Translations under genes and position numbers: made by a program
Part shown: piece by piece, positions 11,034 through 62,919 of the stretch
Position numbering within the stretch: the first letter of the stretch is position 1
How the letters are laid out: each line of letters starts with the position of its first letter
NCBI GenBank assembly: GCA_003345555.1
Contig: PRDJ01000042.1
Coordinates: forward strand, 12,282 to 76,281
DNA length: 64,000 nucleotides
Source: Candidatus Thorarchaeota archaeon
Lineage (GTDB): Archaea; Asgardarchaeota; Thorarchaeia; Thorarchaeales; Thorarchaeaceae
Direction of reading: 5' to 3'
Notes under the pieces: model-generated
The model's input: only the letters and a program-made list of their open reading frames with translations
What the model was told of the DNA's origin: nothing
Database searches by the model: none

Positions 11034-11076
11034 CACGGAAAGTGTTATAGGAGCAGAAGGAGAAGGTCACCCGTTC

Positions 11077-11454: not shown

Positions 11455-11508
11455 GATGAGCGAAGGGGCGAGAATGCCCCTGTCACTCATCTTGATAGGA
11501 CTGGAGCT

Positions 11509-15151: not shown

Positions 15152-15162
15152 GTGATTCTGAC

Positions 15163-19123: not shown

Positions 19124-19142
19124 ATACTACGAGTGATGCGCT

Positions 19143-20906: not shown

Positions 20907-20914
20907 GGCGCATC

Positions 20915-22228: not shown

Positions 22229-24315
22229 AGGTGCTGAGCATCAAACTCAGGAGCTTCAAGCCCTTCCGTAGTCTTCTCCTACCTGACGATGAAGGCGATC
22301 TTCCAGAAGGCTTGATACTGGTTCGAGGACCGAATTCCACAGGCAAGTCCTCGCTCTTCGAAGCAATACTGTGGGGTCTCTGGGGAGCAGACGCAGTGAA
22401 GCTCAACAACGATGAGCTTGTTAGCTTCGGTGCGGCGTCATGTGAAGTTACCATAATCTTTGAGATTGAGAAAAAGCAGTACAAGATTGTCAGGTCGTAC
22501 GGTTTGGATAAGCGTCTGTCTGTCACGCTCTACGCGAAGGCAAACGGCAACTGGAAACCCATAGCTGACAAGAGCAGTTCCGTGGCTACGAAGCTAGAAG
22601 AGATACTCAACCTCCAGCTGAACCAAGCTCTAAACACGCTTCTTGTCCGACAAGGGGAAGTCGCCACCATTGCCAGTGCTACTCCCTCTGAGCTGAGAGA
22701 GCTTCTTGTAAAGGTTTACAACATTGAGCTATTGGATAAGATGGAAACACATCTGGAGAGTCTTGAGTCAGATGTTGCATCCAAGGTCAAGACGCTGAAA
22801 GACAACTATGAGGCGCCTGAACTAATCGAGGAGAGAATCAGACAATCGGAATCCCGAATTCGCAAACAAGAAGAAGGGCTTGAGGCAAGAACCAACCAAC
22901 AGGCTGTCTTGCTCTCTCAGGTAGAGTCTCTTCCCAATCCGGCCATCCTTTCAGAAGTTCTCAAGCTCGATTCTGACGTAGAAGGAAAAGAACGCGAGTA
23001 CGAGTATGCCATAAGCAACAGAGACAGAGAGCTTGCCGATGCTGGACTAGTCGACTCGACAGATATAGTGGTCCGGGCCCGCCAAGAGGAACTTGCCAAG
23101 GAGTTCGAGCGACTAACTGAACAGCGCGCCAGAATCGAGTCGGATATCACAGATGCTGATCAAGAAATCGGTGGGCTGGCTAAGGTTGACAAAGACCTGC
23201 TCAAGCAAGTCGAGACGCTTCAAGGAGCTGCCGAGTCTGTGGGACAAGGAATGAAATGTCCCACCTGTGGGAAGGCTCTATCAGTGAAAGAGCGCGACGA
23301 GTTGGTAGGGCAATACAGAGCCACACTCAACAAGGACGCTTCGCGACGAGACGACCTATCCAAGCTGAAGACCAAGCTGGCCGCGAACAAGAGGATTACG
23401 GACGAGAGACTCAATACCATTCCTTCCGCTATTGAGGCATTGAAACGGCTTTCTGAGCGGCAAGCAGCAGTTGACGAAACAAAGGGGCGGGTGGAGGAGT
23501 CTAAGGGATTGCTGAAATCCTTCCTCAAGGAACATGATATGCCTCCTCTACACGATCTCCTTAGCCAGTTTAACGCCAATGACTTGGCTGAGCTGCAACG
23601 CATCGTAGACGCAAGAAGCATTCAGCTCGAGTCGCTGAATCGAGAGATTGAATCAGCAAAAGCGGAGCTAGACGATAGGCGCAGGGAGAAAGATGAACTC
23701 GAAGCCAGGGCTACCCGAATGAAAGAGATTGGCGCTGAGATTTCAGACATGGAGACACTTGTTGAGCATACGAAGTATGTGAGAAGGAATCTTGTGAAGG
23801 GATTCATCTCCGACTATGTTGTTCAGAAACGATTGATTGGCATAATCAGGGCGGCCACTAATCAATACGTTCAGTCGTTTACGAATGGTCAGTACACTCG
23901 TATTGACTTGGTGCCGACTCCGGCAATGGCAAAGTCCGGTGCTGGGTTAATGCTCAAAGTTCATGACGATCGCGACAATCAGGAAAAGAAGGCCAGCCAG
24001 CTTAGCTACGGGGACCGGACTGCGGTGAGTCTTGCGCTGAGACTCGGAATCAGTCGAACCATGAGTAGAATCCGACCTTTGAAGGACAGTCCCGCGTATT
24101 CTCCTCGGGTCCAATGCGTTCTTCTGGATGAGCCTCTAGGCGGTCTCGATAGAGAACGGAGGGCATCGGTCGTCAGGAATCTAACAAGCGATCAAAGCTT
24201 CAAACAGATATTCCTGATTACGCATACCGATGTCCAAGGATTGGAGGGTGTCTCCGTCATCGATGTCGCAAAAAGCGGCTCGGGAAGTACAGCTACGCTC
24301 ATCGCCACATCATAG
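22225..24315 (+). CDS. rad50: Rad50 ATPase (short coiled coil)
   Basis: Walker A GPNSTGKSS; zinc hook CPTCG; signature LSYGDRTAVSLALRL; Walker B VLLDEPLGGLD; H-loop ITHTD; 4-nt overlap with mre11. Confidence 0.85.
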   Translation: MKVLSIKLRSFKPFRSLLLPDDEGDLPEGLILVRGPNSTGKSSLFEAILWGLWGADAVKLNNDELVSFGAASCEVTIIFEIEKKQYKIVRSYGLDKRLSVTLYAKANGNWKPIADKSSSVATKLEEILNLQLNQALNTLLVRQGEVATIASATPSELRELLVKVYNIELLDKMETHLESLESDVASKVKTLKDNYEAPELIEERIRQSESRIRKQEEGLEARTNQQAVLLSQVESLPNPAILSEVLKLDSDVEGKEREYEYAISNRDRELADAGLVDSTDIVVRARQEELAKEFERLTEQRARIESDITDADQEIGGLAKVDKDLLKQVETLQGAAESVGQGMKCPTCGKALSVKERDELVGQYRATLNKDASRRDDLSKLKTKLAANKRITDERLNTIPSAIEALKRLSERQAAVDETKGRVEESKGLLKSFLKEHDMPPLHDLLSQFNANDLAELQRIVDARSIQLESLNREIESAKAELDDRRREKDELEARATRMKEIGAEISDMETLVEHTKYVRRNLVKGFISDYVVQKRLIGIIRAATNQYVQSFTNGQYTRIDLVPTPAMAKSGAGLMLKVHDDRDNQEKKASQLSYGDRTAVSLALRLGISRTMSRIRPLKDSPAYSPRVQCVLLDEPLGGLDRERRASVVRNLTSDQSFKQIFLITHTDVQGLEGVSVIDVAKSGSGSTATLIATS

Positions 24316-24372: not shown

Positions 24373-26196
24373 ATGCGCTTGGCCAAGCTGGCACCGCGTC
24401 TTGTGAATGGGCTTCTTGTTCAAGTCTCTGTGCTTGTCGTTCTTTATGTCACAGCCGTGGTCTGGGTGCTGGTTTCTGGCGGCGTCGTACAGGCTTACGT
24501 TCCCCAATTGATTATTCTTTACGCTGCGTTCGCCATATTGACTGTGGTCTTCAGGCGCTCTGTTGTCGAGTACTTGCCGCTGCTGCTAGTGCTGCAATTC
24601 GGCATGTTGGTATGGACTTCGGTTTTCAATGCTGCAGTGGCAGACTACCTTTCCGGCGGAGTGTGGAACAGCAGAGGAGTTTGGCTGGGTAATAGACCGA
24701 TCGACTTCTTCGGTTACACAATTCAACTTCGTTTGGAGGGTTATACCGACTACAGCTTCTTCTACGTTCATTGGGGACACAACATGTTGAATGGAGTGAT
24801 GCCATACAGTGACGCATTCGGTTACCTCGTAATGAACGGAATCACAAACAGAAATGGACTGTACATATTTCCTCCGTTCTACGCGTATCTCTATGCGGCT
24901 GGCATAGCCCTTCCTGTTGATGATTGGGGCATAGGACTACTGATTGCCTGTTTTGGATACCTGACTGTTCTGCCCGTGTACGGTCTTGGACGCGAGCTGT
25001 CAGCGAATAGGCATGTTGGGGAAGTTGCAGCTCTGACTTACCTGCTAAGCCCGAGTGTCCTCTATCATACTGATTTCGTATGGTTGAATCCCTCACCCTT
25101 CATCTTCTTCTTCTTTGCGGGGTTCTACATGCTGGTCCGAGGCAATCGACATACCGGCACGATCCTCATTTTGGTCTCGGCATTGTTCAAGCAGACGGCT
25201 TGGTTCTTGGGAATCCCCCTCGTTGTGTACCTTCTCATGAAGCCTCGGGTCGCCTCGCGGGCAAATCCTCCGGGCAACAGAAGTATTCTGGGTTCTGTTC
25301 GTGAGATACTAAGAGGAATTTCCAATGCACTCGATATACGAGGCTTCATGTTCAGTGTAGTGCTAGTAGTCATATTCGTCGGAGCGGTGATGTTTCCGTT
25401 CCTCTTGGCTCAACCGTATGTGCTGCTATTCATGAGCCTGGCCTCTGGAGGCTTTAGGCTCGAGTCATTCACTGAGCTTCCTTCATACGGAAGTCCAGCG
25501 CGGCTTCAAGTACTTCCTCTAGTTGCCTACCTTTCGATACCTGAGTCTAATCGGTCTGAACCTCTTGGTGTTTTTCTTCTATGGTTAACCCAGACTCTTG
25601 ATAACCTTGTCTTCAATGATTTCCTTCTGATCCTGGGGGTTGTGATATTCAGCGGTGTGATGCTGATTGAACCTAGGCGCGTTGGACGCGAGAAGCAGTA
25701 CATGAGGCGTCTGCTTTTCCTCACGATGATAATGATGCTTTGGGTCAATCTGACAGGACCGAGGGGTGTCTACAAATACTATTTCACATTGTTCGCGCCA
25801 TTTTTCTCACTTTTCTCATCTGCCCGAATCGTTGAGAGCAAGGAAGAGCATGTGCCATTTTCTTGGTCAATGCTCTGGCTTCCAGTCTCGATGAGTGCCA
25901 TGATTCTTATTCCAAGTCGCTATGTATACTTATTCGGAGTTCTTTTAATTATGATTGCATACTTGCTTGTTCATAGCGTAGGCACTTTCTGGTATATACT
26001 GACAACCCCGACTCGGTACATGTCAGATAGACTCAAGGGACACATGCATCATACGGCTTTTCTAGCGTCCGTCTTGGCGAGCAAAGTGAGAGGACTCAAC
26101 AGAGAAACAAGCCCATTGTCCGAAACCCTGCCTGATTCGGAAGCCATGCGTGAATCCGAAGGCAGAGGAGGCATGTCTAATGTTGGAAAGCCTTAA
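24373..26196 (+). CDS. GT-C fold integral membrane glycosyltransferase, PIG-M/DUF2029-like (paralog 1)
   Basis: 607 aa, at least 10 TM spans. First-loop motif GYTDYSFFYVHW...GVMPY (similar to the PIG-M YTDIDY...SPY motif), WLNPSPF, FKQTAWFLGIPLV. Confidence 0.5.
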   Translation: MRLAKLAPRLVNGLLVQVSVLVVLYVTAVVWVLVSGGVVQAYVPQLIILYAAFAILTVVFRRSVVEYLPLLLVLQFGMLVWTSVFNAAVADYLSGGVWNSRGVWLGNRPIDFFGYTIQLRLEGYTDYSFFYVHWGHNMLNGVMPYSDAFGYLVMNGITNRNGLYIFPPFYAYLYAAGIALPVDDWGIGLLIACFGYLTVLPVYGLGRELSANRHVGEVAALTYLLSPSVLYHTDFVWLNPSPFIFFFFAGFYMLVRGNRHTGTILILVSALFKQTAWFLGIPLVVYLLMKPRVASRANPPGNRSILGSVREILRGISNALDIRGFMFSVVLVVIFVGAVMFPFLLAQPYVLLFMSLASGGFRLESFTELPSYGSPARLQVLPLVAYLSIPESNRSEPLGVFLLWLTQTLDNLVFNDFLLILGVVIFSGVMLIEPRRVGREKQYMRRLLFLTMIMMLWVNLTGPRGVYKYYFTLFAPFFSLFSSARIVESKEEHVPFSWSMLWLPVSMSAMILIPSRYVYLFGVLLIMIAYLLVHSVGTFWYILTTPTRYMSDRLKGHMHHTAFLASVLASKVRGLNRETSPLSETLPDSEAMRESEGRGGMSNVGKP

Positions 26197-27700
26197 TCGC
26201 GCTCTTCGTAGGATTGTCCTAATCCTGTTCAAATACAGGATACTCCTTGTGATACTCATATCGGCCTGTCTTGTTTGGGCGTGGATATTCAATCTGGCCG
26301 CGGCGGATTTCATTGAAGGTGGGTCGAGGCCTTTCAGAGCGGCCTGGAACGGATATGGCGCAATCAACGTCGCGGGATTGACGATTCCGCTGAACCTTGA
26401 GGGTTGGGCTGACTACGACTACTACTACATCAGTTGGGCAGACCAGTTTCTAAGAGGCGTTCAGCCTTACACAACCGAATTCGATTATCAAACGATTGGT
26501 GGCACAGTATACAACATTCCGTATTTCTTTCCCCCTCTGTTCTTGTATCTGTGCGCATTCGGGAGGGTGCTGCCGATTCAACCGTTTGGAATCGGATTGG
26601 TCATTACAGTGTTTGGCTATCTCACGGCTTTGCCGATATACGGGGTCGGAAAGTATCTCTCCGACAACCCGCATGTGGGAGAAATCGCAGCTGCAACGTA
26701 TCTCTTCAATCCAATTGTGCTTTATCACACAGTGGTTGATTGGCTAAATCCAGCTCCGTTTGTCTTCTTTGTCATGCTTTCCATCTATCTGATAGTCTCT
26801 GGCCACAGGGTCTCCGGTGTCCTTGCAATGGCGACCGCGGCAATGTTCAAGCAGACGGCGTTCGTGCTAGCCATACCTCTAGTCTGCTTCTTCCTGAGAA
26901 GACCTCCTCAGAAAGATGTGGCTCCCGAAACCGAGGCTCTTCAGGAGGGAAAGAGGTCCCTTCCGAGCGACAAGCTCGACTTGCGAAGTTTCTCAAAGAT
27001 CGTTCTGGTTGTTCTATTGTATGCGGTCGCCCTTTCTGTTCCATACTTGTTAGACCCGCTGAACTATGGATACTTCATCTTTCAGCGTGCAGGTGCCTTT
27101 CTATTGACCGATTTAGCGACACCTCCCGGCGACGGGCTGCCTATGACCTTGGCTGTCATTCTCATTGTGATGCATGCACCGGAGTGGTTAATCCAAGGTG
27201 TGAATCTAATGACGTATTACTCGGTCGGTCTCATCCTCGGGCTTTTGCCCATCCTCGTACAGATGCTTATCGAAATGAAGGATGACCGCAATCTGACCGG
27301 ATATTGGCGAAGGATGCTCTATCTCACATTATTGCTCCTACTCTGGATTCACCTCTTCTCGCCACGGGGAATCTACAAGTACTACCTAGTCGCGCTTGTA
27401 CCCTTCTTCTCGATCTTGTCGTCAACGACTATGTGCTCCAAAGAGTCTGGCGAATTTCGTCCGTCACTCCCGATGGTCGTTAACCCATTTGTGATCAGTA
27501 TACTGATTATTGTGCCCGACAGAACCATCTACATGCTATACTTGATACTAATCCTTCTATCATATGTCTTCTACAGACAGCTTGGCTTGGCATACAGACT
27601 TCTTGGCCGGACCTTCAGGCGAGGTATGAACGGCCTTCGCCACCTACGAGGGCATTCGGAGCCTCCAAGTTCGTCGAGTACTCTTGCGGAAGGAAGATGA
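26150..27700 (+). CDS. GT-C fold integral membrane glycosyltransferase, PIG-M/DUF2029-like (paralog 2)
   Basis: 516 aa with matching motifs ADYDYYYISWADQF...GVQPY, WLNPAPF, FKQTAFVLAIPLV, RGIYKYY. The annotated start overlaps paralog 1 by 47 nt; the true start may be 26180. Confidence 0.5.
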   Translation: MNPKAEEACLMLESLNRALRRIVLILFKYRILLVILISACLVWAWIFNLAAADFIEGGSRPFRAAWNGYGAINVAGLTIPLNLEGWADYDYYYISWADQFLRGVQPYTTEFDYQTIGGTVYNIPYFFPPLFLYLCAFGRVLPIQPFGIGLVITVFGYLTALPIYGVGKYLSDNPHVGEIAAATYLFNPIVLYHTVVDWLNPAPFVFFVMLSIYLIVSGHRVSGVLAMATAAMFKQTAFVLAIPLVCFFLRRPPQKDVAPETEALQEGKRSLPSDKLDLRSFSKIVLVVLLYAVALSVPYLLDPLNYGYFIFQRAGAFLLTDLATPPGDGLPMTLAVILIVMHAPEWLIQGVNLMTYYSVGLILGLLPILVQMLIEMKDDRNLTGYWRRMLYLTLLLLLWIHLFSPRGIYKYYLVALVPFFSILSSTTMCSKESGEFRPSLPMVVNPFVISILIIVPDRTIYMLYLILILLSYVFYRQLGLAYRLLGRTFRRGMNGLRHLRGHSEPPSSSSTLAEGR

Positions 27701-28891
27701 TTAGGAGGCTTGCTTGTCAAATTCCTCTCTCTTCTCAGCAAGTCTCCTGTCTAGGCTAGCTAACCGTTCGTCCAGTTTTTCAACCTGCTCATCATAGCTC
27801 TCTCTTGTCATAGTGCCAGTGGAGAGTTTCTGTTCTATGTGATCTCGGAGCTGATGAACTGACTTGATTTCCTTCTCGATAGAATCGATGTCAGCTATTA
27901 TCTCCTCGATTCTGTTCTCTTCCTCGGATTTGAATTGTTTCGCGGGCACCATGAGTCCGAACTGTTGTTGTGTCTTTTCCGCAAAGTCTTGGAATTGACC
28001 TCTGAGCCCTTCGATGCTCTTCTCGATTCTCCCCGTGTTCTCTGTGAGTCTCGCTATGTCTTTTTGTAAATCAATGACTGCATTGACAAGTCTGCGGAGT
28101 GTCTTGTCTATCTCGGCTTCGAAAGTGACCTGTGCGCCCTCACCAGCCGAGGGTCTTTCCTCTGCGGCCTTCGCTTGTGCCGCAACCACACGGCTAGGCC
28201 TTGTCAGTCGGTCTTCTCCTGTAAGCCATCTGAAACAGTTGAGTGCGAAGGTTGTGTTACCGTCGTTCTTCAAACCTCCCCCTCTTCGGAATATCTCATA
28301 GGTCCCGATGCAGATGACCCTCCCCCGCTCGAAGTCTGCGGCAGCTATGACAGGCTGATTTGGCGGATCCGCAGCCCCCGATGTTGCTGCTATGGCCATT
28401 GCCTTTCCCGAAAGCCTCAAGGTGCATGATGATGGCAGCAAGATATTGTTGATTCCTTCGGTTATTGAATGTTGGACGAAGCCTGATATCATGAGCAGAG
28501 TTGGAAGACCTGCGTTGTCTCTTTCATCCTTGACTGCCGTGTTGTCGAACTCGATACCAAAGTTCTTCGACAACAGGCTCATATTGGTCATGAGCCCCTT
28601 GTCGCCGCCAGAGAGCGACAGCAACATCAATCCGCCGCCGTCCTGAACAAACTTCTTGATGGCATCAATTTCATTGGACCGAAGCTTGGAGCCATTCGGG
28701 CAGGCAAACACGAGAGCGTCAATTCCTTCCAGCTTCTTGGGCATTATCATATACTCTGTATATGCCTCGACGTCATAGTCATTGTCTTTGAGAAGCTGAC
28801 CGAGCTGTGAATAAGTCGTGTCTAAGCGTCCTCTCTCGTTCTGAGTCTGGTCAAATGCAATTCGCTTTCTCCTCGCGCTCACGTTGCGCAC
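27701..28891 (-). CDS. hypothetical protein: ThuA/GATase1-like N-terminal domain plus C-terminal coiled coil
   Basis: 396 aa; IDALVFACPNGSKL...GGGLMLL pattern, then a long heptad-rich tail. Confidence 0.35.
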   Translation of the reverse strand: MRNVSARRKRIAFDQTQNERGRLDTTYSQLGQLLKDNDYDVEAYTEYMIMPKKLEGIDALVFACPNGSKLRSNEIDAIKKFVQDGGGLMLLSLSGGDKGLMTNMSLLSKNFGIEFDNTAVKDERDNAGLPTLLMISGFVQHSITEGINNILLPSSCTLRLSGKAMAIAATSGAADPPNQPVIAAADFERGRVICIGTYEIFRRGGGLKNDGNTTFALNCFRWLTGEDRLTRPSRVVAAQAKAAEERPSAGEGAQVTFEAEIDKTLRRLVNAVIDLQKDIARLTENTGRIEKSIEGLRGQFQDFAEKTQQQFGLMVPAKQFKSEEENRIEEIIADIDSIEKEIKSVHQLRDHIEQKLSTGTMTRESYDEQVEKLDERLASLDRRLAEKREEFDKQAS

Positions 28892-34132: not shown

Positions 34133-35062
34133 TCATCGCGAAGAACCACAATAAGGACAGACTCTTGTCCCTTCCCTTAGGCTTCTGCCGCATGAGAAGC
34201 AAAAGCTTCTCTTGGGTTCTTCAGTACGCTTGTCTTCGGCGAAGGGACTGAGTTCTCCCTGCGCAAACAAGCTGCCTAGGCCTTCAACTGAGTCTCCAGA
34301 ACAGCTCCGACAAGCAGTACTAGAGGATTTGTCGCGGGTAACGGGCCGACGCTGGTCACCACGATAGTCTTCTTCGCGATCGTCGTTGAAAGGACCGGCT
34401 GTCCTTCCTTCCGAGAACGGGCTCTCTTGCTGTTCCAATGAATACCCTTGTCCGGCTGACCATCGGTCTTGGCCTTGGGCTTGAACCGGGCTGGGTCGAC
34501 TGGACTGCATGCTCCTATCTAGAGTTTCGAAGTCTCCTCGGTAGTCATCAGAACTGTAATCCCCCCCTGTCGAAGGTCGATTCGCACTTCTCTGACCTAG
34601 ATCCTCCCTTGGCTCATAGTCTTCTTGGGATGAGAGTCCTCGCGAGGCATCGATGAAATGAGTGTGGGACTCTGCCTTGAGCCGCTGATAGTCATCTTGT
34701 GTTAAGCCAAGCATCTCAAGCGATCTGTCTCTGTCGGCGCATCTCTTTGAAAGGGGACAACAGTAGGCTAGGCTGCCATGACATAAGGATGCCATGGCTC
34801 TCTCTTGACGTGACTTGAATATCGGCGTAATCCTCCGATTTCCGAAGATGAGCGAATCCCCGACGGCCTTCAGCTGAGTATAGCCGCTTTGCGCCATTGC
34901 CTCAACAATCTCTCTTGCGGGATAGGGCTTGCCCTCTATTATCACGTAGCCCTCAGTCTTTTCCAGTCTGATGGGCCTTTCAGCGCCCCTATCATCATAG
35001 CTCGAATCGTATCTCGTCTGAGCCCACCTCAGGTCGATGTCTATGTCAGGGATTGGGGTCAC
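34133..35062 (-). CDS. hypothetical protein, largely disordered with C-terminal zinc ribbon
   Basis: 309 aa; CFSCG...CPYCG at the C-terminus. Confidence 0.35.
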   Translation of the reverse strand: MTPIPDIDIDLRWAQTRYDSSYDDRGAERPIRLEKTEGYVIIEGKPYPAREIVEAMAQSGYTQLKAVGDSLIFGNRRITPIFKSRQERAMASLCHGSLAYCCPLSKRCADRDRSLEMLGLTQDDYQRLKAESHTHFIDASRGLSSQEDYEPREDLGQRSANRPSTGGDYSSDDYRGDFETLDRSMQSSRPSPVQAQGQDRWSAGQGYSLEQQESPFSEGRTAGPFNDDREEDYRGDQRRPVTRDKSSSTACRSCSGDSVEGLGSLFAQGELSPFAEDKRTEEPKRSFCFSCGRSLREGTRVCPYCGSSR

Positions 35063-37700: not shown

Positions 37701-38963
37701 CTAAGGTCTTCTCAGTATGACCAGATTCTCCGTAGCTGTTCTCCTGTCTTCGATCTTGGTTGCCGGATTCACATGATAGGAAAAGACTCTCCGAGCGACT
37801 ATCGTGTCAATCAGTGTCTTTTCGTGAATCCAGCCCATCTGAGTGAAGTGCTCTGCGAAGATCGTGTCTATCGGAATCGGGCGTCCCCTGAGACTAGACC
37901 TTCCTACGAAGAAAAACAAACGCGACGTTATCTTGTCCTGCAGGCGACTGAGTGCTCCTAGGATGCCGTGAAAATAGCGGTCGTAGATCTTCTTTATGTG
38001 CTCTTCCTCGATATCATCGCGAATGACTGAGAATGTGGGCGAGTTCACCGGCCTCGGAGGCAGGTTCCTGTAGGGAATCTCAAGTCTACTGAGATTCTTA
38101 ATCTCCATTTCAGAGTGTCCCAACCAGAAGAGATCCATCTTGGCTTGGCGTATGTATTCTTGGGACTGTAGGTAAGGCGGAGAGGTTATGAGAATGTCCT
38201 TCTCCTCGTCGAGATTAGTAGACAGCGTATCAACTCCGCCTCTGACCACGGCCTTTGTCATCTTGGGCGCAAGACTCTGATATTCACTGAGTCTCTGAAG
38301 GACATTCTCAGTTTCACGTCTCACCGTTTCATAGAACCGCTTCTTCCAGTCTCCGGCAATTAGCTGCATAATCCTCTCTTTTGACTTCGGCGACTTAGAC
38401 AACTTCATCCTTCCCATATCATCGAAGGAGAAGTTCCTGCTTGCCTTGAGGAGCGGTATCGTAAGGAGCAGTCTTGCATGCTCATCATCGAGTGAATGGT
38501 AGAATCCCCAGGCTCTGGTCAGAATAGGCACGAATTCAGGAGGAAACCAATAATCGAACTTGGACCAGTCGGGCATGAATTCCTCCTCTGAAGAAACCAT
38601 CTTGTCTATCAGTTCTCTTGTGCGAATCTCTCGTGGCTCCAGCATAGTGATACGGTGAAGGACTTCTATGATTGGATTCAAATCCCACAGCTCGTAATCA
38701 CAATCGTATAATCGAGACACGACGCCCACCGTGCCATAACCGGCGAAGGGGTCGAATACCTTCGCTCTGGAGTGTGCGTAGTTTTTCAGAACGTATGCTA
38801 TGACGTGAGGGATGAACTTTGCCGGGTACCTGTAGATACCAAAAGCAGCATAGGTCGTGGAAGGGAAGTCAATCAAGTCCCTGAATGCAACTTGTTCTTC
38901 TGGCCCCAAGGTTTGTTCTTCTCGCGTGATTACGTCTGTGACATCTGGGTTGGTCGCCCACAT
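37701..38963 (-). CDS. DNA amino-methyltransferase (N6-A/N4-C), alpha-type motif order, orphan
   Basis: Motif I FDPFAGYGTVG about 180 aa before catalytic SPPY; no nuclease neighbour. Confidence 0.6.
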   Translation of the reverse strand: MWATNPDVTDVITREEQTLGPEEQVAFRDLIDFPSTTYAAFGIYRYPAKFIPHVIAYVLKNYAHSRAKVFDPFAGYGTVGVVSRLYDCDYELWDLNPIIEVLHRITMLEPREIRTRELIDKMVSSEEEFMPDWSKFDYWFPPEFVPILTRAWGFYHSLDDEHARLLLTIPLLKASRNFSFDDMGRMKLSKSPKSKERIMQLIAGDWKKRFYETVRRETENVLQRLSEYQSLAPKMTKAVVRGGVDTLSTNLDEEKDILITSPPYLQSQEYIRQAKMDLFWLGHSEMEIKNLSRLEIPYRNLPPRPVNSPTFSVIRDDIEEEHIKKIYDRYFHGILGALSRLQDKITSRLFFFVGRSSLRGRPIPIDTIFAEHFTQMGWIHEKTLIDTIVARRVFSYHVNPATKIEDRRTATENLVILRRP

Positions 38964-39225
38964 TTCAAGTATTGCTATAACAAAGACAATACGTCCAGAT
39001 GGCGGGAGTGGGACTCTCGTTCGTTTGCAGATGGCAGTTCCAGAGACCTACTTGACCGTGCCGCGAACGTGACCTCGTGATGCCAACGCTTATCAGTTGA
39101 ATGTGTTTCTTTTGAGCCAGAACTACGAAGGAGGTAGTCAGGCAGAATGGCAATAACCCAATGGGGGAATCGCGTTTGCGCGCCAGTCGATACTAGCTCT
39201 GCCTCCCTCTGCGAAGTTCGTCTAC

Positions 39226-39405
39226 GTGCTTCTTAAGAGCCGGCACCAATTGTCCCGGCAGGATTTAATCTCGGCGACCTACATGCCCCCAAGAACAGTG
39301 AACTATGGGATTAGTCGCTTAAAGGCATTAGGTCTGATTCAGGAAGAGAAGCATGGCGGCGATGCGCGGGAGAAGGTATACGTGCTGGTTTCGGCGCCGG
39401 TGTGA
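39226..39405 (+). CDS. small winged-helix DNA-binding protein (GTG start), not in the ORF track
   Basis: Manual translation gives VLLKSRHQLSRQDLISATYMPPRTVNYGISRLKALGLIQEEKHGGDAREKVYVLVSAPV with an HTH-plus-wing pattern. Confidence 0.3.
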   Translation: MLLKSRHQLSRQDLISATYMPPRTVNYGISRLKALGLIQEEKHGGDAREKVYVLVSAPV

Positions 39406-39572
39406 TTCCCGCTTAGGAATTCCGTATCGACTTAGCATCCCATAGGTACTGCAGGCAACTGCAGTATCTCCCTTTCTTTCGGTTCATCCAAAAGCCTCAT
39501 AATCGAGACGCGGGAACCTCGGATTGGCCAACTCTCAACATGGTGTAGTTGCACATGGCCAGTTGATGAGCG

Positions 39573-41439: not shown

Positions 41440-42177
41440 ATGGACGAACCACTGCAATCCGCGCTCTACGCATCAATCGCTACACTGGACCAGCTCAAGA
41501 AAATGTACGACATGGGCGTTGTTGATGTCAGGTCGTATGAAAGGGAGTCTGAAGCGCTAATAACAGAGGTTCGGAATTGCATCGAACAGATGCGGAGAAC
41601 CGGTCTTGACGTTGGGAACTTCGTGGGTCAGGCCCGGATATCGGAGTCGTTTCCCGAAGCGTCGAACATGCTGGGGCTGTACGGACGAGACACGCGGCAG
41701 CCAGGTATAGGGATGACAACTGATCAGTACTTCGACTACATCGGACTTGCCGTCTTAGATGTGGCTACCGCGAATTCCTCGAAAGGGCTGATGGGACTTG
41801 CGGAACTCATTGTCGAGGTCGTGCGCCTGCTGCCAGAGCTCAAGTCTGTCAGCTACAATGACGTGATCGAGGCAGTGAACCGCGTGTCTCAACATGGATT
41901 GATACCGGGCATTCGGACGCTTAGGGGCGGAGTCAAAGTTGTGGAACTGCGTCCGTTAGAGCTGCGTCGTGACCAAGCAGATGTAATCAATGCTGCCGCC
42001 ACCAAGGGGTACGTTTCCATTGAAGAGCTCATGATGCAGCTCAAGTGGTCAGAGGACCATGCACGTCAAGTTCTCTCCAGTCTGGTCGATGCTGGCATGG
42101 CAGTGGCAGACATACGGTTCTCGACGGGTGGCCGCTATTACTTCCCGGGTTTAAGACCTAGAGATAGTACAGTGTAG
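41440..42177 (+). CDS. ESCRT-II Vps22/EAP30-like tandem winged-helix protein (tentative)
   Basis: 245 aa; helical N-terminus and two WH-like segments; context with Vps25-like and Vps4. Confidence 0.4.
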   Translation: MDEPLQSALYASIATLDQLKKMYDMGVVDVRSYERESEALITEVRNCIEQMRRTGLDVGNFVGQARISESFPEASNMLGLYGRDTRQPGIGMTTDQYFDYIGLAVLDVATANSSKGLMGLAELIVEVVRLLPELKSVSYNDVIEAVNRVSQHGLIPGIRTLRGGVKVVELRPLELRRDQADVINAAATKGYVSIEELMMQLKWSEDHARQVLSSLVDAGMAVADIRFSTGGRYYFPGLRPRDSTV

Positions 42178-42225
42178 AGGACTGTATTCGCTGTTGGCAT
42201 TCGGGCTATGACAGGTCACATTGGA

Positions 42226-42939
42226 TCAGACCACTGCTAGTATTGCGCCTTTCTTCGAGTCAACCCATTTTGCCAATCCTTTGTCAACCATTATCTGCAT
42301 GATTCGATGCAAGTCTCTTTCAGGGAGCTTCGAGAAGTCTTGGCCGGATTCCTGCACGACAATTGACTGCACATCTAGGCGCAGTTTTCCTGTCTTTATT
42401 GCCCAACGGTATATGATGTCACCCCATTCCTCGAGGGGTCGCCAGTAGACTCGAAGCTGTCTTTTCTTCTCGTCGAGCCATTCTCCAACGTCCTTCTTGA
42501 CCAATGATTCACCTATGAATCTGAAGGCGTCGACCTTTCCAAGGATGTCACTGAACGGTTTCTCCTTCACGAAGGTTGACACTGAAAGAACATGTATGCT
42601 TTTGAACTCGGTCCAAATCATAAGATAGTCTGACCACTCTTCCGCCCACATTTCTATGTCTTTTTCTGCAGGTGGAATATGATACATCCATTCAGCTTGG
42701 TTTACGTTTCCCCACTGCGGGGCCGGGAGCTCTAGGACCTGTGAGGGCGCAGACTCAGGGACGATTTCAGTCTGAATCGACTCGAGCTCCTGAGTCTGCG
42801 AATCCTCTTCAGCTTCAGTTTCGGTAACATCGACAAGAGTGTCGGTCTTAGGTGTCTCTTTGCCAACAGAAGCATCAGACGTTGGTTTGGGGGTTGGCTT
42901 CTGTCGCTCCTTTTCTTTCCGGCGTTCCTTCACTTCCAA
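42226..42939 (-). CDS. ESCRT-II Vps25-like protein
   Basis: C-terminal tandem WH with the Vps25-like signature YWRPLEEWGDIIYRWAIKTG; start 3 nt after the vps4 stop. Confidence 0.55.
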   Translation of the reverse strand: MEVKERRKEKERQKPTPKPTSDASVGKETPKTDTLVDVTETEAEEDSQTQELESIQTEIVPESAPSQVLELPAPQWGNVNQAEWMYHIPPAEKDIEMWAEEWSDYLMIWTEFKSIHVLSVSTFVKEKPFSDILGKVDAFRFIGESLVKKDVGEWLDEKKRQLRVYWRPLEEWGDIIYRWAIKTGKLRLDVQSIVVQESGQDFSKLPERDLHRIMQIMVDKGLAKWVDSKKGAILAVV

Positions 42940-42942
42940 TCC

Positions 42943-44172
42943 CTAAGACGCCTCCCCCCATTCGATATACTTCCTTACGTCTTCTGGAGTTGTACCGGGT
43001 CCAATGTTCTCAATAGCCCGCAGAAAGTCGTCCCGTGAGACGGGCCGTAGTTCGAGTCGTGCGCGGTCGCTATCGAGCTTTCCCACGCGCTGTAGGTCTC
43101 TTATTGGTTCCATCGCGGCTTCCCGACATACCACACTAATATCCCGGCCACTATAACCGTCGGTCAAATCAGCAAGTTCTCCGAAGTCGACTTCCGGGGA
43201 CAGTTCAATGTCTTCCATGTGAATCTCGAATATCTTTCTCCGTGAGGTTTTCCTTGGCAAGGGGATGTGAATCTTCTTCTCAAATCTTGATCGAAGAGCG
43301 AAGTCCAGTTCCCATGGAAGATTGGTAGCACCGATTACAGTAACCCTATCATCGGGATGAGTCGCCAATCCCTGCAGCTCAGTCAATAGCTGAGTCTTGA
43401 GTCGTCTCTCCCCGCCAACATCATGTCCCGTTCTTGAGATTCCAACAGAATCAAGCTCATCCATGAAGATAACGGAGGGCTGACTCCTCCTCGCCATTTC
43501 AAAGAGGGTCATGACGAGCTTCTCTGACTCGCCGAGCCACTTGCTGACGATATTTGCGGCTGAGACATTGAAGAACGTTGCATGCACTTCAGAGGCCACA
43601 GCCTTTGCTATGAGAGTCTTACCACATCCTGATGGTCCATAGAACAGAATGCCCTTCCAGGGCTGCCTCGATTTTCCCTTGAAGAGTTCAGGATGTTTCA
43701 TTGGAGACACAATGGCTTCTTGAATTACCTGCTTTGCATCGTCCAATCCTGCAACCTCGGACATTTTCAAATCCGGTCGTTCAGTAAGAATCGTGTCAGC
43801 AATCATATCCTGAAGGTGTCTCATGTCTTCGTTGTCGTCGCCTGTTTCCGAAGTCCTTCCGGATGGCAGTGATGGCTCTCCCCTGTCTATAGAAAATGTG
43901 GCGGGAATACTTGGAATCGTCGGTCGTTCCGCTTGCCTTGTCTTAAGGCCTGAGATGTATCTTACCCGATCTACACACTCTTGGGCCCTGCTCAGGTAGT
44001 GCTTCTGCAAAGATGGAAGGGATGAGGAATTCGAGAGCTTGATGAGTATCATGCTTGCCTTTAGATAGTCACTACAAGCCTCTTTCTGGAGTCCTCTCCT
44101 GTCCAAATCTATTGCCTTTTCGAGCAAAGCCTTGACTCCAAGGTCGAGGCGGTCAGCGTCTGTTCCTGACAT
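42943..44172 (-). CDS. vps4: Vps4-like AAA ATPase (MIT domain plus AAA)
   Basis: N-terminal MIT-like helices; Walker A GPSGCGKT; Walker B VIFMDELDS. Confidence 0.85.
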   Translation of the reverse strand: MSGTDADRLDLGVKALLEKAIDLDRRGLQKEACSDYLKASMILIKLSNSSSLPSLQKHYLSRAQECVDRVRYISGLKTRQAERPTIPSIPATFSIDRGEPSLPSGRTSETGDDNEDMRHLQDMIADTILTERPDLKMSEVAGLDDAKQVIQEAIVSPMKHPELFKGKSRQPWKGILFYGPSGCGKTLIAKAVASEVHATFFNVSAANIVSKWLGESEKLVMTLFEMARRSQPSVIFMDELDSVGISRTGHDVGGERRLKTQLLTELQGLATHPDDRVTVIGATNLPWELDFALRSRFEKKIHIPLPRKTSRRKIFEIHMEDIELSPEVDFGELADLTDGYSGRDISVVCREAAMEPIRDLQRVGKLDSDRARLELRPVSRDDFLRAIENIGPGTTPEDVRKYIEWGEAS

Positions 44173-44268
44173 TCAAGGTCGCCAGTCAAGTGCGCTTGAA
44201 TGGTTAAGAGTTTCTGTGTTTCGTAGCGCGATACTCCTTCAGTTGTCCTGCCCGCCAGAAAGGCACGT

Positions 44269-44955
44269 TTGTTACGAAGGCTTAAAGGCGGAGGTCTCGC
44301 ACAACCCACAGAAGTTCATCATCAGGACATGGTGAGGTCGTTGGGTACATTCAGGAAGGCTATGACTTGGGGTCGCAAGAAGCCGGACGTTGCAGAGGTA
44401 ACCAGTCAGCTTAGAATCCTAGGCAAAGAGCTCGAGCGAGAGAGAAACAGGCTCGAGAAGGAAGAGACTGAGACCAAGGCTCGAGCGGTGCGGGCTCGGA
44501 AAGAGGGCCATGTCGACGCCTACAAGACCTACGCAGTAGAGATGATCCGGTTCAGGAAGTATGCTTTGTCTGTCGACAAATCGCGGCTTCACCTACTGAG
44601 GGTACTCGGCCATATCGTTCATGCTCAGTCGGCCGCTAAGACGAGCTTGGCAGTAGAAAAGGTCGCCAAGATTCTCGGGATACTAGGTGATGCAAAAGAC
44701 CCAACAAAGGTTGTTCGGAGTCTTGATGAGATTACTCGAAGACTGGACGCAATGGAAATCGAAAGCGGGATTTCTGACGAAGCCTTTGACTCTATGAAAG
44801 ACAGCAAGGTGACGTCAGAAGAGCTGGCCGCAGCACTGCAGGAGATTGATGCCGAGGCTGGGGCTGCAAAGGTCGTCTCGCGGGCCGGTCCAGCTACAGA
44901 GGCTGAGAAACTCGAAGAAGAGATCAAGTTGCTAGAGAAGGAACTTGGTGTCTAG
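44269..44955 (+). CDS. ESCRT-III (Snf7/CHMP family) protein
   Basis: 228 aa; basic helical N-terminus, acidic C-terminus with MIM-like EEEIKLLEKEL; divergent from vps4. Confidence 0.6.
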   Translation: MLRRLKGGGLAQPTEVHHQDMVRSLGTFRKAMTWGRKKPDVAEVTSQLRILGKELERERNRLEKEETETKARAVRARKEGHVDAYKTYAVEMIRFRKYALSVDKSRLHLLRVLGHIVHAQSAAKTSLAVEKVAKILGILGDAKDPTKVVRSLDEITRRLDAMEIESGISDEAFDSMKDSKVTSEELAAALQEIDAEAGAAKVVSRAGPATEAEKLEEEIKLLEKELGV

Positions 44956-44956: not shown

Positions 44957-46597
44957 CTAGCGCCCAAAGACCTGACGATTCCCAGAAGCCGTTTCTAGTC
45001 TTTTTCTCGTTTCAAATGAATCTCGCATGAGTCCCTTGTATCTCCTGATGAAATCCTCTGGGACCAGCTGACCGTTCCTCAATAGACGAACCGTTTCTCT
45101 AGCGGCATCCTCAATCGTTATCGCGTCTCTTCTGAGTCCCATTGTTTCTGCAGAGTCGGGAACCGGAGAAGGCATGCCACCTGCACCGAACAAGCCGCCG
45201 AGGTCTCGGCCGAGTCTGTCGTGATACTGCAAAGGAGCTGTGCGGGCTCCGTTGTCAGATGCGTTTCCGAATGGATAGTACGAAGCCGATCGCCGGTCGT
45301 ATGGTCCGTATCCAGCAGATGCTTGTGTCCCGATGTCAGCTTTTCCACCTGAACACATGAGCGAGTAGGCGAGTTCTTCTACCTTGAGCCTGACATCGCT
45401 AATGCTCACGTCGGTCTGTCCGAGCTTTCTCGTTCGCTGAAGGTCTGACTGCATATACTTGTCGAATTTTCTGGCGATTTCTACATAATCTGGCAGAACA
45501 CTCTCTGTCTGATCGCTGCAAGTTATCTTGATATCGCCCTGCTTCATTCTCAGGACTGTTCTCTTTCTCAGCCTGCCATCCTCTTCTAAACCCTTCATGT
45601 AAGCAAGGGGTATATCGAAGACTATGTCGGTTTTCTTTCGGAGTCTTCCGGTTTCAGCAATAAAGACGAGCCTCTTGTTGGTTATGTACAAGGTGCCAGT
45701 GGCCTTGTCATTCTTCACGAAGTCACTGCCTGCGATTCTGATGTCGGGTAACGCACAGACTGGCAGTTCGTTTACAGACAGTTCTGCAGTCTCATAGAAC
45801 CCCGCGAATTGCTTCCTATAGTAGTCCAGTCCGTCCAGCTGCTGTTCGATATCTACTAATGTCAGCCTCGCCTCTTCGATTGCGTCATCAATATTCTTCC
45901 GGTATTGACCCACAAGATGGGTGACACGATTCGTTACTCCGCCTACAAAGGGGAACTGATCGGCAGACCATGCGCTGGAATCGAGGAGCCCCTTGGTCTC
46001 AGCAGCCATTTGCCTCGAGACTATCTCCGCTTGGCTTGTCACTCTGTTCTTGATGGCAGGGATCTCCATCTCGATGTTCTCAATCTTCTCTTCCAGCCAG
46101 CGATAGTGAAGGAAATTCGCCATCCTGAGAGAAACAAGAAGCCTCTTGGCTGACATCAGCTGGTTGGTGAAATCGCGCAGGCGTGTGTATCCATAGTGGA
46201 GTGTGATTATGGCATGACGCAGGTCTTGAGCCAGCACCTTTCTTTTGTCCTCTACAGACACCGTGTGTGTGGAATGGCACCTGGGACAGATTTCTTCGAT
46301 TCGCTTCCCAGCACTCAGCTCTCGAGAGCCGCATTCCGGGCATTTCTCGAACTTCTGCCCTGGGGCGGGAGTGCCAAGGCCGTGGTGGCAATTACTGCAT
46401 ACAATGTGCTCGCTTGACTTGGTCTCAAGGCATTCCAAGCACAATACCTCTCCGCAATCCTCACAAAGATGCGTGGCTCTATTGCTCTTGCAGACTTTAC
46501 AGAGCTGGGTAGAGGATTCGTTACTCAACTGGGTGCCTCCGAACATCTGGGCTTGCATATTGTACTGAGGAGTCATGGATAATTGGCTATGTATCAC
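44957..46597 (-). CDS. B-box/treble-clef zinc-finger protein with coiled coil and GRAM/GLUE-like PH domain
   Basis: 546 aa; CKVCKSNRATHLCEDCGEVLCLECL...CSNCHH; CPECG...CPRCH; GTLYITNKRLVFIAE GRAM/GLUE-type strand. Confidence 0.5.
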   Translation of the reverse strand: MIHSQLSMTPQYNMQAQMFGGTQLSNESSTQLCKVCKSNRATHLCEDCGEVLCLECLETKSSEHIVCSNCHHGLGTPAPGQKFEKCPECGSRELSAGKRIEEICPRCHSTHTVSVEDKRKVLAQDLRHAIITLHYGYTRLRDFTNQLMSAKRLLVSLRMANFLHYRWLEEKIENIEMEIPAIKNRVTSQAEIVSRQMAAETKGLLDSSAWSADQFPFVGGVTNRVTHLVGQYRKNIDDAIEEARLTLVDIEQQLDGLDYYRKQFAGFYETAELSVNELPVCALPDIRIAGSDFVKNDKATGTLYITNKRLVFIAETGRLRKKTDIVFDIPLAYMKGLEEDGRLRKRTVLRMKQGDIKITCSDQTESVLPDYVEIARKFDKYMQSDLQRTRKLGQTDVSISDVRLKVEELAYSLMCSGGKADIGTQASAGYGPYDRRSASYYPFGNASDNGARTAPLQYHDRLGRDLGGLFGAGGMPSPVPDSAETMGLRRDAITIEDAARETVRLLRNGQLVPEDFIRRYKGLMRDSFETRKRLETASGNRQVFGR

Positions 46598-52878: not shown

Positions 52879-53712
52879 ATGTCAGACCGCCTTTCCATTC
52901 ACGGCATCTGGTTAATTGAACGCCATACGGGTAGGAATCTGATAGCCCGGGCGTATACCGGTGTCTCCATCGATATGGACTTGATCGCACCATTTCTGTC
53001 AGCGACTCACACTTTCATAAACCGCGCAGCGAACGAGACTCTGAGAACAATCGACACTGATACACATAGGTACGTGTGGGCTGCAAATGATGAGCTGTTG
53101 TTTGTGATGGTAATATCCAAGGGCGCACGCACAGGACACATGCGGTTCCTTCTCGATTATGCACTGAATGAGTTCATGCACAACGAAGTCCCTGAGGGAA
53201 TGGACCTGCCCACCTTCTTGAAACAATGGGAAGGAAACCCAGTGAGCTTCGAGCGGTTCGCCAGATTCGTGGATGAGCTGGTCTCTCAGTATGAACAATC
53301 AGGCGATAGTCTCGTGGCCGGAAAGACGATGGACTGTCTTGAGGTGCACAATCATATCTTCAGGGCACTAATGGAAGTAAAGGTCGACAAGAGGACCCGC
53401 AAGAAGATGGTTGAGGAAATCAAAGCACGACTTCGGCCGCTTGTAGAAACACACCCCTTCTTGGCTGTGGTGCCTGTGGATGATGCAGGCATTGAAGTTC
53501 TCAACATTGACGTATACAGTGTGGAGTACAAAGCCCTCCGAAGCGCGCTGGAGAGCGTGTTCCAGGTGGTCGCCGAGGTGATAAGGAACGTTGCGGGTGA
53601 GGAACCGTATCGGAACATGATCTTCGACCATGCAATGCCCTATGTCAAGAACGACATCGAACGCCTCCAGACCTATGCGATTCTCGACGATATTGTACGA
53701 TACCTATTCTAA
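52879..53712 (+). CDS. longin/roadblock-like domain protein with helical C-terminal extension (tentative)
   Basis: 277 aa; N-terminal 120 aa fit a longin-type alpha-beta-alpha profile (GIWLIERHTGRNLIARAY...ELLFVMVISK). Confidence 0.35.
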   Translation: MSDRLSIHGIWLIERHTGRNLIARAYTGVSIDMDLIAPFLSATHTFINRAANETLRTIDTDTHRYVWAANDELLFVMVISKGARTGHMRFLLDYALNEFMHNEVPEGMDLPTFLKQWEGNPVSFERFARFVDELVSQYEQSGDSLVAGKTMDCLEVHNHIFRALMEVKVDKRTRKKMVEEIKARLRPLVETHPFLAVVPVDDAGIEVLNIDVYSVEYKALRSALESVFQVVAEVIRNVAGEEPYRNMIFDHAMPYVKNDIERLQTYAILDDIVRYLF

Positions 53713-57622: not shown

Positions 57623-58387
57623 TTAATGGGCCTGCCAGAAGGTCCAACCCAGGACTATCATACATGTCAGTGCGATTAGGAATGCCCACACCGTGGACGT
57701 ATCGTGCGCCTCTCTTATACCGAATGTCAGAAGGAAGCCCACCCAGACAAATGATGCCGTGGTCATATAATCCAAGATAAGCCAGACATCCGATCCATAG
57801 ATGGACGCAACTACATTAGGCAATACTGCCCCCGGTCCAATGTCATATGTCGGCAGGACTGCAAGCAAAACGAAGAATCCTATGACTCTGAAGAGCAACA
57901 CTGGCATCATACTGTACCCAACTACTGAAAGCGTCTTGGTCATGCGCCCCGTGCCCCCTGCGACTTTGAAGGCGATATGGGCGAATAGGGTACCCACGAT
58001 TAGATAGATCATTCCAATCATGATGTTGGATACAATGCTTGCCAATGCCGTTGCATAGTACATGCCGGCATCTGTAGTATCCAAGATGGACACGGTCGCC
58101 GTGGCTCCCGAGGTAACATTGGTCACGACAACGACAGTGAGGTGCGATGATATCGCTAGGAAGAAGCCCATGAGCAACAGTGCATTCATCATTATTATCA
58201 TGAAGGGGCCAGCACCGTCGGGTCTCTGAGCGATATCTCGGTAGGTCAGTGCAGGTCTTCTGATTACCCCCCATAGACGCTCAATAGTTCCCATCGCACG
58301 GACTTCTGGTGCCTCAGGTCTCTTCAGCAGAGGCAACACTCTCTCTAGAGCCTCTTCAGAAATGACCTGTCTACACACTGGACACAC
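57623..58387 (-). CDS. Yip1-domain membrane protein with N-terminal zinc ribbon
   Basis: 254 aa; CPVC at the N-terminus, then five TM spans in a Yip1-like arrangement. Confidence 0.4.
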   Translation of the reverse strand: MCPVCRQVISEEALERVLPLLKRPEAPEVRAMGTIERLWGVIRRPALTYRDIAQRPDGAGPFMIIMMNALLLMGFFLAISSHLTVVVVTNVTSGATATVSILDTTDAGMYYATALASIVSNIMIGMIYLIVGTLFAHIAFKVAGGTGRMTKTLSVVGYSMMPVLLFRVIGFFVLLAVLPTYDIGPGAVLPNVVASIYGSDVWLILDYMTTASFVWVGFLLTFGIREAHDTSTVWAFLIALTCMIVLGWTFWQAH

Positions 58388-62793: not shown

Positions 62794-62919
62794 GGCTTTC
62801 TATCAGCCAGTTCCCCCAATAAAGCAACCCCGAACTTGCTCTTGCACCTGCTAGGGACGTTCCAAGCAGCTGAACGGTCCCTCGGTGAAGGTTTTAACGC
62901 GCTGAGGTTGGAGCATACA

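Follow-up and report, generated by a model that had tools for sequence, protein, structure and literature searches.

The yeast pathway of the endosomal sorting complexes that are required for transport (ESCRT) comprises Vps22-Vps36-Vps25 with two copies of Vps25, Vps20/Snf7/Vps24/Vps2, and Vps4. Among archaea, ESCRT clusters of Thorarchaeota have been the subject of a survey with partial testing (Hatano 2022, PMC9192718), and special domain architectures of Asgard ESCRT proteins, including that of an adaptor, were described in 2024 (Makarova, PMC10936438). According to the latter description, a steadiness box is joined to Asgard Vps22 (cog.002769), additional subdomains are present at the N-terminus of Vps25 (cog.003176), and the family Znr_CC_PH_SB (cog.011556) is a likely Asgard ESCRT-I component that occurs in the ESCRT neighbourhoods of several Asgard lineages. 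The locus analysed here lies in a 64,000-nt stretch (the window) of contig PRDJ01000042.1 of a Candidatus Thorarchaeota archaeon. At positions 41440 to 44955 of the window the original prediction, made from the sequence alone, had placed genes for a Vps22-like protein, a Vps25-like protein, Vps4 and an ESCRT-III protein.

This Thorarchaeote (Asgard) locus is very probably a standard, conserved ESCRT module consisting of Vps22, Vps25, Vps4, one ESCRT-III protein and a zinc-ribbon/PH adaptor, and the same confidence applies to the working order proposed below. Through its fifth gene the module reaches to approximately position 46558. The ESCRT system of the window is already known; the original prediction had missed the Znr_CC_PH_SB gene next to it, the assignment of the ESCRT-III protein to the ESCRT-IIIB class and the prior description for Thorarchaeota (PMC9192718, PMC10936438). 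As far as the published Thorarchaeal cluster is described, the window has the same components and linkage, with vps25 co-directed and coupled with vps4, Znr_CC_PH_SB nearby and no ubiquitin genes; an EAP30 protein with an added N-terminal helical hairpin and a Vps25 with extra N-terminal sequence are also shared. It differs in that the ESCRT-III gene is divergent from vps4-vps25, whereas the published one is "typically" co-directed, and in that vps22 has neither a vps23-like nor a vps28-like gene as its neighbour. Nothing essential differs.

The four predicted genes were found as ORFs at their predicted positions, each with a product above the curated Pfam cut-off (EAP30, ESCRT-II/Vps25, AAA and Vps4_C, and Snf7). 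The Pfam scans covered all non-overlapping ORFs of at least 70 aa in the window (approximately 60). Curated cut-offs were applied to Pfam and equivalog cut-offs to NCBIfam, which has no ESCRT-II models and so gave no information on the winged-helix proteins.

The Vps22-like protein is the ESCRT-II subunit Vps22 (EAP30/SNF8). It matched Pfam EAP30 over aa 92–224 with 49.6 bits (cut-off 26.8), a match shared by all 41 members of its family, and a phmmer search of PDB gave human SNF8/Vps22 (E 2e-14). In the AlphaFold2 (AF2) model, with a mean predicted local distance difference test (pLDDT) score of 82, an N-terminal hairpin was joined by a linker to a helix, after which came two winged-helix domains. 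When this model was searched with Foldseek, human and yeast Vps22 (3cuq_A, 2zme_A and 1u5t_A) occupied ranks 1–3 and Vps36 ranks 4–5. The N-terminal hairpin gave a weak Pfam match to VPS28 (aa 7–64, E 0.0026), which was also found in 17 of the 41 family members.

The Vps25-like protein is the ESCRT-II subunit Vps25. It reached 43.3 bits against Pfam ESCRT-II (PF05871; cut-off 27), its nearest solved structure was the tandem winged-helix protein Vps25 of an Odinarchaeon (7pb9, E 2e-29), and further PDB matches were the ESCRT-II subunit 9uyv (E 1e-23) and human Vps25 (E 4e-9). That the two winged-helix proteins are instead DNA-binding regulators, lying merely beside a Vps4/ESCRT-III pair, is extremely improbable and already largely refuted. 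Sub-threshold Pfam matches of the Vps22-like protein to HTH_DeoR, TFIIE_alpha, EutK_C and TrmB, together with generic winged-helix proteins lower in the Foldseek list, could be read in that direction; however, all transcription-factor matches were below their cut-offs while the ESCRT-II profiles were above theirs, the best matches in sequence and fold were Vps22, Vps36 and Vps25, and nearly all Thorarchaeal species show signs of translational coupling between vps25 and vps4 (see below). Both proteins thus passed ESCRT-II-type profiles, the opposite of the outcome that the original prediction had named as speaking against it.

The 3-nt distance predicted between vps4 and vps25 was confirmed: 3 nt separate the vps4 stop codon TAG (42943–42945) from TTG at 42939. 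The junction was surveyed in approximately 65 Thorarchaeal species, and the motif was recognised by a script in 48 loci. The gap was 3 nt in 47 of these 48; the vps25 start codon was TTG in 27, GTG in 19 and ATG in 2. A GGAGG sequence lies within the last vps4 codons (WAEGS), approximately 10 nt upstream of the vps25 start. The extension that precedes the EWMYxIP segment was 83 aa long in the window and 81–94 aa in six other loci, with the frame open, and had a median length of 88 aa among 115 homologues. Identity to Thorarchaeal orthologues was 52–63% in the core and 23–34% in the extension; in the approximately 65 species the Arg, Lys, Glu and Val codons of the extension varied synonymously, with the amino acids kept.

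The open, length-conserved frame, the fixed junction, the GGAGG sequence and the synonymous variation together indicate that the extension is translated, that its start is the one given in the original prediction, and that it is coupled to vps4; from these signals vps4 and vps25 appear to be one translationally coupled unit in almost every Thorarchaeal species. We rejected a start at the internal Met (aa 85), which would leave the protein without the extension: the frame upstream of it is open, conserved in length and under amino-acid-level selection in the approximately 65 species. The "100-aa charged N-terminal extension" of the original prediction therefore holds for its existence, start and charge; its length before the EWMYxIP core is approximately 83 aa.

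Approximately 70% of the residues in the extension are polar or charged. It begins with a basic head (MEVKERRKEKERQK in the window; family consensus of the first 14 residues MGV[KR]ER[RK][RK]EKxKxK; net charge approximately +3), which is followed by an acidic, E/V/T-rich low-complexity linker (net charge approximately −16). A PxWG motif 7–10 residues upstream of the core was invariant in the 115 homologues, in which both PxWG and EWMYxIP are N-terminal of the first winged helix. In eukaryotic ESCRT-II, a proline-containing N-terminal arm of Vps25 binds Vps22/Vps36, through PPXY motifs in yeast. The published accounts may not yet describe the conserved non-ATG start 3 nt past the vps4 stop or the two motifs, basic head and PxWG; these would be an incremental addition to them. 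A protein in JGI was 100% identical to the Vps25-like protein.

Vps4, the ESCRT-IV protein of the AAA+ meiotic clade, has a single AAA+ cassette, with Walker A GPSGCGKT, Walker B IFMDELD and, within SKWLGESEK, the pore loop KWLGES readable in the translation. Pfam AAA was matched with 133 bits, AAA_lid_3 with 48.7 bits and the Vps4_C oligomerisation helix with 22.9 bits (cut-off 21.3). In a phmmer search of PDB, Vps4B aligned full-length (aa 16–364, E 3e-80); double-cassette Cdc48/p97 proteins had a higher total score than Vps4B. As judged from sequence length, the stretch that links the lid to the C-terminal helix is much shorter than the beta domain of eukaryotic Vps4. Of the "MIT plus AAA" reading in the original prediction the AAA part stands, and the N-terminus is likely an MIT domain. 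A profile of 14 Thorarchaeal Vps4 N-termini had MIT domains as its best matches (calpain-7, 5e-4; chitin synthase, 0.011; Vps4, approximately 0.08; CdvC 2w2u, 0.43), yet from E of approximately 0.14 chance-level non-MIT matches, such as ribosomal protein S20, stood among the weaker rows; the assignment is likely, with weak support.

The ESCRT-III protein matched Pfam Snf7 with 49.4 bits (cut-off 27.3), and its PDB matches were CHMP2A (8e-7), CHMP1B, CHMP3, Heimdall ESCRT-IIIB (9ftl) and CdvB (9s9j). No CHMP4/CHMP6/Snf7/Vps20-class protein was matched in PDB at E ≤ 1. With the nearest PDB relatives of CHMP1/2/3 type and none of CHMP4/6/Snf7 type, the protein is assigned by sequence to the Vps2/24/46 (ESCRT-IIIB) class. 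In the alignment of orthologues the C-terminus is a conserved amphipathic helix (E.E.LE..IK.LE.ELG). Its sequence in the window, LEEEIKLLEKELG, resembles a MIM1 motif in the register L-x3-I/L-x2-L, but has acidic residues at the MIM1 Arg/Lys positions.

The module shares with the CdvABC system of Thermoproteota a Vps4-type ATPase, an ESCRT-III homologue and a gene for a membrane-binding partner, here a putative one, next to that for ESCRT-III. It could accordingly be read as a Cdv-type cell-division machine, as in Thermoproteota, with the adaptor in the role of CdvA, tethering ESCRT-III at the division site. We consider this very unlikely. CdvC is the best NCBIfam model for Vps4, ESCRT-III has a weak CdvB match and 9s9j among its PDB matches, the adaptor gene adjoins that of ESCRT-III as cdvA adjoins cdvB, and the steadiness-box hairpin is described as similar in sequence to CdvA (PMC10936438); but the scores were far under the equivalog cut-offs (CdvC, 256 bits against 650; CdvB, 20.8 bits against 370), no CdvA-like Pfam match was found among the approximately 60 ORFs of the window, the ESCRT-III protein lacks the C-terminal winged helix of the CdvB type, and ESCRT-II subunits, which Cdv systems do not have, are present and apparently translationally coupled to Vps4. 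These results, and the Thorarchaeotal host, agree with the Asgard-type rather than Cdv-type architecture, devoid of CdvA, that had originally been predicted.

The ESCRT-III gene diverges from vps4, as predicted. Alignment of 10 loci showed two blocks in the divergent spacer that are conserved across Thorarchaeota, GTTAAGAGTTTCTGTGT on the vps4 side and CGAAGGCTTAAAGGCG on the ESCRT-III side. Judged from their sequence and position, both are candidate archaeal promoters, of the B recognition element (BRE)/TATA type. The ESCRT-III start is most likely ATG 44329. TTG 44269, at which the mechanical ORF begins, was rejected as a start, since it is upstream of the promoter-like block invariant in the ten loci and the orthologues start at the equivalent of ATG 44329.

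The fifth gene encodes an adaptor of 533 aa from ATG 46558 (the mechanical ORF extends up to GTG 46597), and its end is 1 nt from the ESCRT-III stop codon. No Pfam family was matched above its cut-off. The AF2 model, built with 58 homologues, had a mean pLDDT of 80, and its order of three zinc modules, coiled coil and PH domain matches that of Asgard Znr_CC_PH_SB (cog.011556) as described in PMC10936438; the assignment to this family is based on architecture and genomic context. In Foldseek the PH part found MTMR2 GRAM-PH, Lam6 PH-like and the Vps36 GLUE domain (2cay; template modelling (TM) score 0.56–0.60 on the target). Weak Pfam matches within the 58-member family were to bPH_3 (30), zf-B_box (27), GRAM (8), Vps23_core (8; best E 5.7e-4), Mod_r/Vps37 (2) and Vps36 GLUE (2). 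NZF-type ubiquitin-binding fingers were considered for the adaptor but are unlikely, the Cys spacing CxxC-x14-CxxC being unlike the NZF pattern. We propose that the protein is an ESCRT-I-like membrane or cargo adaptor.

Gene order was highly conserved. A contig scan with the single Vps25-like sequence found no relative, but a scan with the adaptor alignment did give loci. Six contigs found via the adaptor (48–99% identity) carried, in order, TldD/PmbA (leftward), the adaptor (rightward), ESCRT-III (leftward), Vps4 and Vps25 (both rightward), Vps22 (leftward) and AspRS (leftward). Among 75 species representatives of Thorarchaeota in GTDB searched with tblastn, the five-gene order was present in nearly all, wherever the contig was long enough, and the order ZnrPH, ESCRT-IIIB, Vps4-Vps25, Vps22 held down to approximately 40–45% identity. 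The adaptor adjoined ESCRT-III in the 75 species. The sole clear exception among the long loci was L044 (CP070658.1, the chromosome of Thorarchaeota bin8, 9579–17542), in which the adaptor/ESCRT-III pair is kept but the 8 kb around it lack Vps4, Vps25 and Vps22. Next to the pair comes instead a large protein of secreted type (1087 aa) with a masked N-run, the result of a rearrangement or else of faulty assembly. Homologues of three proteins of the locus were found almost only in metagenome-assembled genomes named Thorarchaeota or Promethearchaeota (the phylum name), and a 184-kb ENA metagenome contig (k141_1146343) was 99–100% identical over the region.

The housekeeping flanks (TldD/PmbA, AspRS, ArgRS and TFB) are equally syntenic in Thorarchaeota, which makes adjacency of the adaptor weaker evidence of function; synteny alone is no proof of linkage. 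It is unlikely, all the same, that the adaptor has nothing to do with ESCRT and is adjacent only through the collinearity of Thorarchaeal genomes. The synteny of the TldD/PmbA and AspRS neighbours and the weak matches behind the steadiness-box assignment would fit such a reading, whereas the weak matches of the adaptor are specific to ESCRT-I/II elements (Vps23_core, Mod_r and Vps36 GLUE), L044 keeps the adaptor with ESCRT-III although the other three genes were not found within 8 kb, and the same family is reported from ESCRT neighbourhoods of several Asgard lineages (PMC10936438). The ESCRT-flavoured domains and the literature thus add to the case for a functional link between the adaptor and the module.

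Genes for ubiquitin-like proteins, E1/E2/UEV, Vps23, Vps28, CdvA or a second Snf7-family protein were not found by Pfam among the window ORFs of at least 70 aa; the ubiquitin and ESCRT-I components for which the original prediction had suggested searching the flanks were thus absent there. Ubiquitin-system or ESCRT-I core genes were likewise not found within ±10 kb in six related contigs. The lack of ubiquitin genes in the window agrees with the report on Thorarchaeota, which gives no ubiquitin homologues for 30 genomes (Hatano 2022, PMC9192718). The same report lists Vps28 and a free steadiness-box protein as encoded in Thorarchaeal genomes; neither is in the window, and both must lie elsewhere in the genome.

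Compared with eukaryotic ESCRT, the locus has homologous Vps22, Vps25, a Vps2/24/46-class ESCRT-III, a Vps4 of probable MIT-AAA type, PH (GLUE-like) and zinc modules, and putative steadiness-box-like hairpins. Unlike in eukaryotes, there is no separate Vps36, and the PH and zinc modules belong to a coiled-coil protein of their own rather than to an ESCRT-II subunit. A hairpin weakly similar to the Vps28 core is part of the Vps22-like protein, the locus has one ESCRT-III gene, and the window has no gene for ubiquitin, UEV, Vps23, Vps28 or Vps37.

The proteins of the module would work in the following order. The adaptor would be held on the membrane through its PH domain, possibly with cargo bound by the zinc modules, and its C-terminal Vps23-like hairpin would pack onto the Vps28-like one at the N-terminus of the Vps22-like subunit. 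A homodimer of the latter would hold two Vps25 arms, attached through the PxWG...EWMYxIP arm, and the C-terminal winged helix of Vps25 would nucleate an ESCRT-IIIB polymer on the membrane. The MIT domain of Vps4 would then bind the MIM-like C-terminal helix of ESCRT-III, and ATP-driven remodelling or disassembly would lead to membrane scission. The ESCRT-III gene would be transcribed divergently from its own promoter. Eukaryotic ESCRT biochemistry and published Thorarchaeal two-hybrid data are the basis on which the contacts among the proteins and with the membrane are inferred, as is the cellular process, which may be vesicle budding, division or repair. Self-interaction of Thorarchaeal Vps22, and contacts of Vps25 with ESCRT-IIIB and of Vps4 with ESCRT-III across the Asgard sets tested, are reported in PMC9192718, which also gives vps25 as the gene most tightly linked to those of ESCRT-III and Vps4.

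Several observations weigh against parts of this scheme, in addition to the syntenic flanks. Vps4 MIT reached 18.7 bits, below the Pfam cut-off of 30; of the profiles proposed as a check with the original prediction, EAP30, ESCRT-II (Vps25) and Snf7 were above cut-off and MIT was below. When profiled alone, the two hairpins gave sub-significant matches, that of Vps22 to the yeast Vps28 core at E 0.3–0.7 and that of the adaptor to three yeast Vps23-core entries at E 0.11–0.31. Comparison of the adaptor C-terminal and Vps22 N-terminal hairpin profiles with hhalign detected no similarity (probability 2%), which leaves a steadiness-box module common to both hairpins without sequence support. The AF2 models of the Vps22-like protein and the adaptor are monomers. 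The locus has a single ESCRT-III class, and eukaryotic Vps25 recruits the other class (Vps20).

A more specific version, a ubiquitin-free chain, is put forward only tentatively, as possible but doubtful. In it, the Vps23-like hairpin of the adaptor would pair with the Vps22-fused Vps28-like hairpin, linking a membrane or cargo sensor to ESCRT-II and on to ESCRT-IIIB; the basic head and PxWG of Vps25 would be short linear motifs, not described before, that serve in arm docking, membrane contact or autoinhibition; and the non-AUG start, coupled through the Shine-Dalgarno sequence, would set the Vps25:Vps4 dosage. The hairpin pairing has already been suggested in outline (Makarova 2024, PMC10936438), and the details on Vps25 motifs and dosage may be new.

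Table 1. Positions of the ESCRT module features in the window and of the domains in the encoded proteins
Feature	Position	Strand	Description	Basis
Vps22-like gene	41440–42177	+	245 aa ORF; convergent with the Vps25-like gene, as predicted	
Vps22-like domains	aa 3–54; aa 94–111; aa 117–234		N-terminal helical hairpin, followed by linker; helix; tandem winged-helix	
Vps22-like/Vps25-like spacer	42178–42225	.	48 nt between converging stop codons	sequence reading
Vps25-like gene	42226–42939	-	237 aa ORF	
Vps25-like core	42226–42690	-	tandem winged-helix, aa 84–237, from the conserved EWMYxIP segment	
Vps25-like N-terminal extension	42691–42939	-	approximately 83 aa	
vps4	42943–44172	-	409 aa ORF	
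Vps4 domains	approximately aa 10–75; aa 175–305		MIT-like three-helix region, followed by Pro/Ser-rich linker; AAA+, followed by lid and Vps4_C helix	
Divergent intergenic region vps4/ESCRT-III	44173–44328	.	156 nt	sequence reading
Conserved block 1, GTTAAGAGTTTCTGTGT	44203–44219		TTAA core approximately 32–35 nt upstream of the vps4 ATG	
ESCRT-III (Snf7), mechanical ORF	44269–44955	+	228 aa, TTG start	
Conserved block 2, CGAAGGCTTAAAGGCG	44275–44290		TTAAA core approximately 43–47 nt upstream of the ESCRT-III ATG	
ESCRT-III, corrected	44329–44955	+	208 aa from ATG 44329 (MVRSLGTFRKAMTWGRKKPD...)	
Adaptor gene (fifth gene)	44957–46558	-	convergent with the ESCRT-III gene	
Adaptor zinc modules	aa 20–101		three Zn-binding beta-hairpin modules	AF2; six CxxC pairs, cysteines conserved
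Adaptor helices	aa 102–250		three long helices	AF2
Adaptor PH/GRAM/GLUE-like fold	aa 266–368		seven strands and a helix	AF2
Adaptor linker	aa 406–465		disordered	AF2
Adaptor C-terminal hairpin	aa 470–525		helical hairpin, confident	AF2

The G+C content was approximately 51% throughout the window, which also carries genes for archaeal TFB, a family-B DNA polymerase, aminoacyl-tRNA synthetases and proteins with eukaryote-like domains of the Asgard style (IFT52-GIFT, a weak longin match, Yip1 and PIG-U; see below). Between AspRS and a class-III aminotransferase (37701–39572) is a 420-aa DNA-methylase-like ORF (N6_N4_Mtase E 1.3e-4, below cut-off) followed by approximately 600 nt without a long ORF; this slot varies among Thorarchaeal contigs, holding PAS sensor kinases, other methylases or small ORFs. 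Tests with tRNA and Rfam scans showed no RNA gene near the ESCRT locus, the sole one in the window being a tRNA-Arg (CCG) at 501–578 (+) (ARAGORN; Rfam gathering thresholds).

Families best known from eukaryotic membrane trafficking are represented in the window by a PIG-U-like (GPI transamidase subunit) membrane protein at 26150–27700 (+; 42.8 bits against 24.5) and a Yip1-domain protein at 57623–58387 (−; 75 bits). The 396-aa protein encoded at 27701–28891 (−) has an IFT52 GIFT domain (58 bits, cut-off 27.2), a eukaryote-associated intraflagellar-transport domain, followed by a coiled coil. For the 277-aa protein encoded at 52879–53712 (+), the longin match was weak and below cut-off (Fuz_longin_1, E 1.8e-4); in six of six related contigs TFB is adjoined by an equally long gene without Pfam match. 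No ESCRT-related match was found for the 309-aa protein encoded at 34133–35062 (−), whose middle is a long acidic/Ser-rich low-complexity stretch and whose C-terminus carries zinc ribbons (Zn_Ribbon_1, below cut-off at E 8e-5).

Four co-directed genes at 17810–24315 (+) form an archaeal double-strand-break repair operon, encoding a 437-aa ORF product, a HerA-type helicase, an Mre11-like phosphoesterase and Rad50 with a zinc hook; the first of these has no Pfam match and is possibly NurA. Consecutive genes at 14246–17635 (+) for an MtrH-like methyltransferase, a RACo-type corrinoid activation protein and a B12-binding corrinoid protein suggest a corrinoid-dependent methyl-transfer module. At 62836–64000 (+), a gene running past the window end encodes an EF-Tu-family GTPase with archaeal SelB domain III (27.6 bits against 19), which suggests a selenocysteine-specific elongation factor.

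As one more copy of a described locus, with a near-identical contig in ENA, the module does not change the current view. Its practical value lies in the annotation, which now has corrected start codons, a class (ESCRT-IIIB) for the ESCRT-III protein and a fifth gene. Among prokaryotes, the Asgard archaea have the ESCRT modules most closely related to the membrane-scission machinery of eukaryotes; that of Thorarchaeota is of interest in that it does without ubiquitin. Experiments on ESCRT-II recruitment and dosage in such a ubiquitin-free system could be guided by the coupled non-ATG start of vps25 and by the conserved motifs of its extension.

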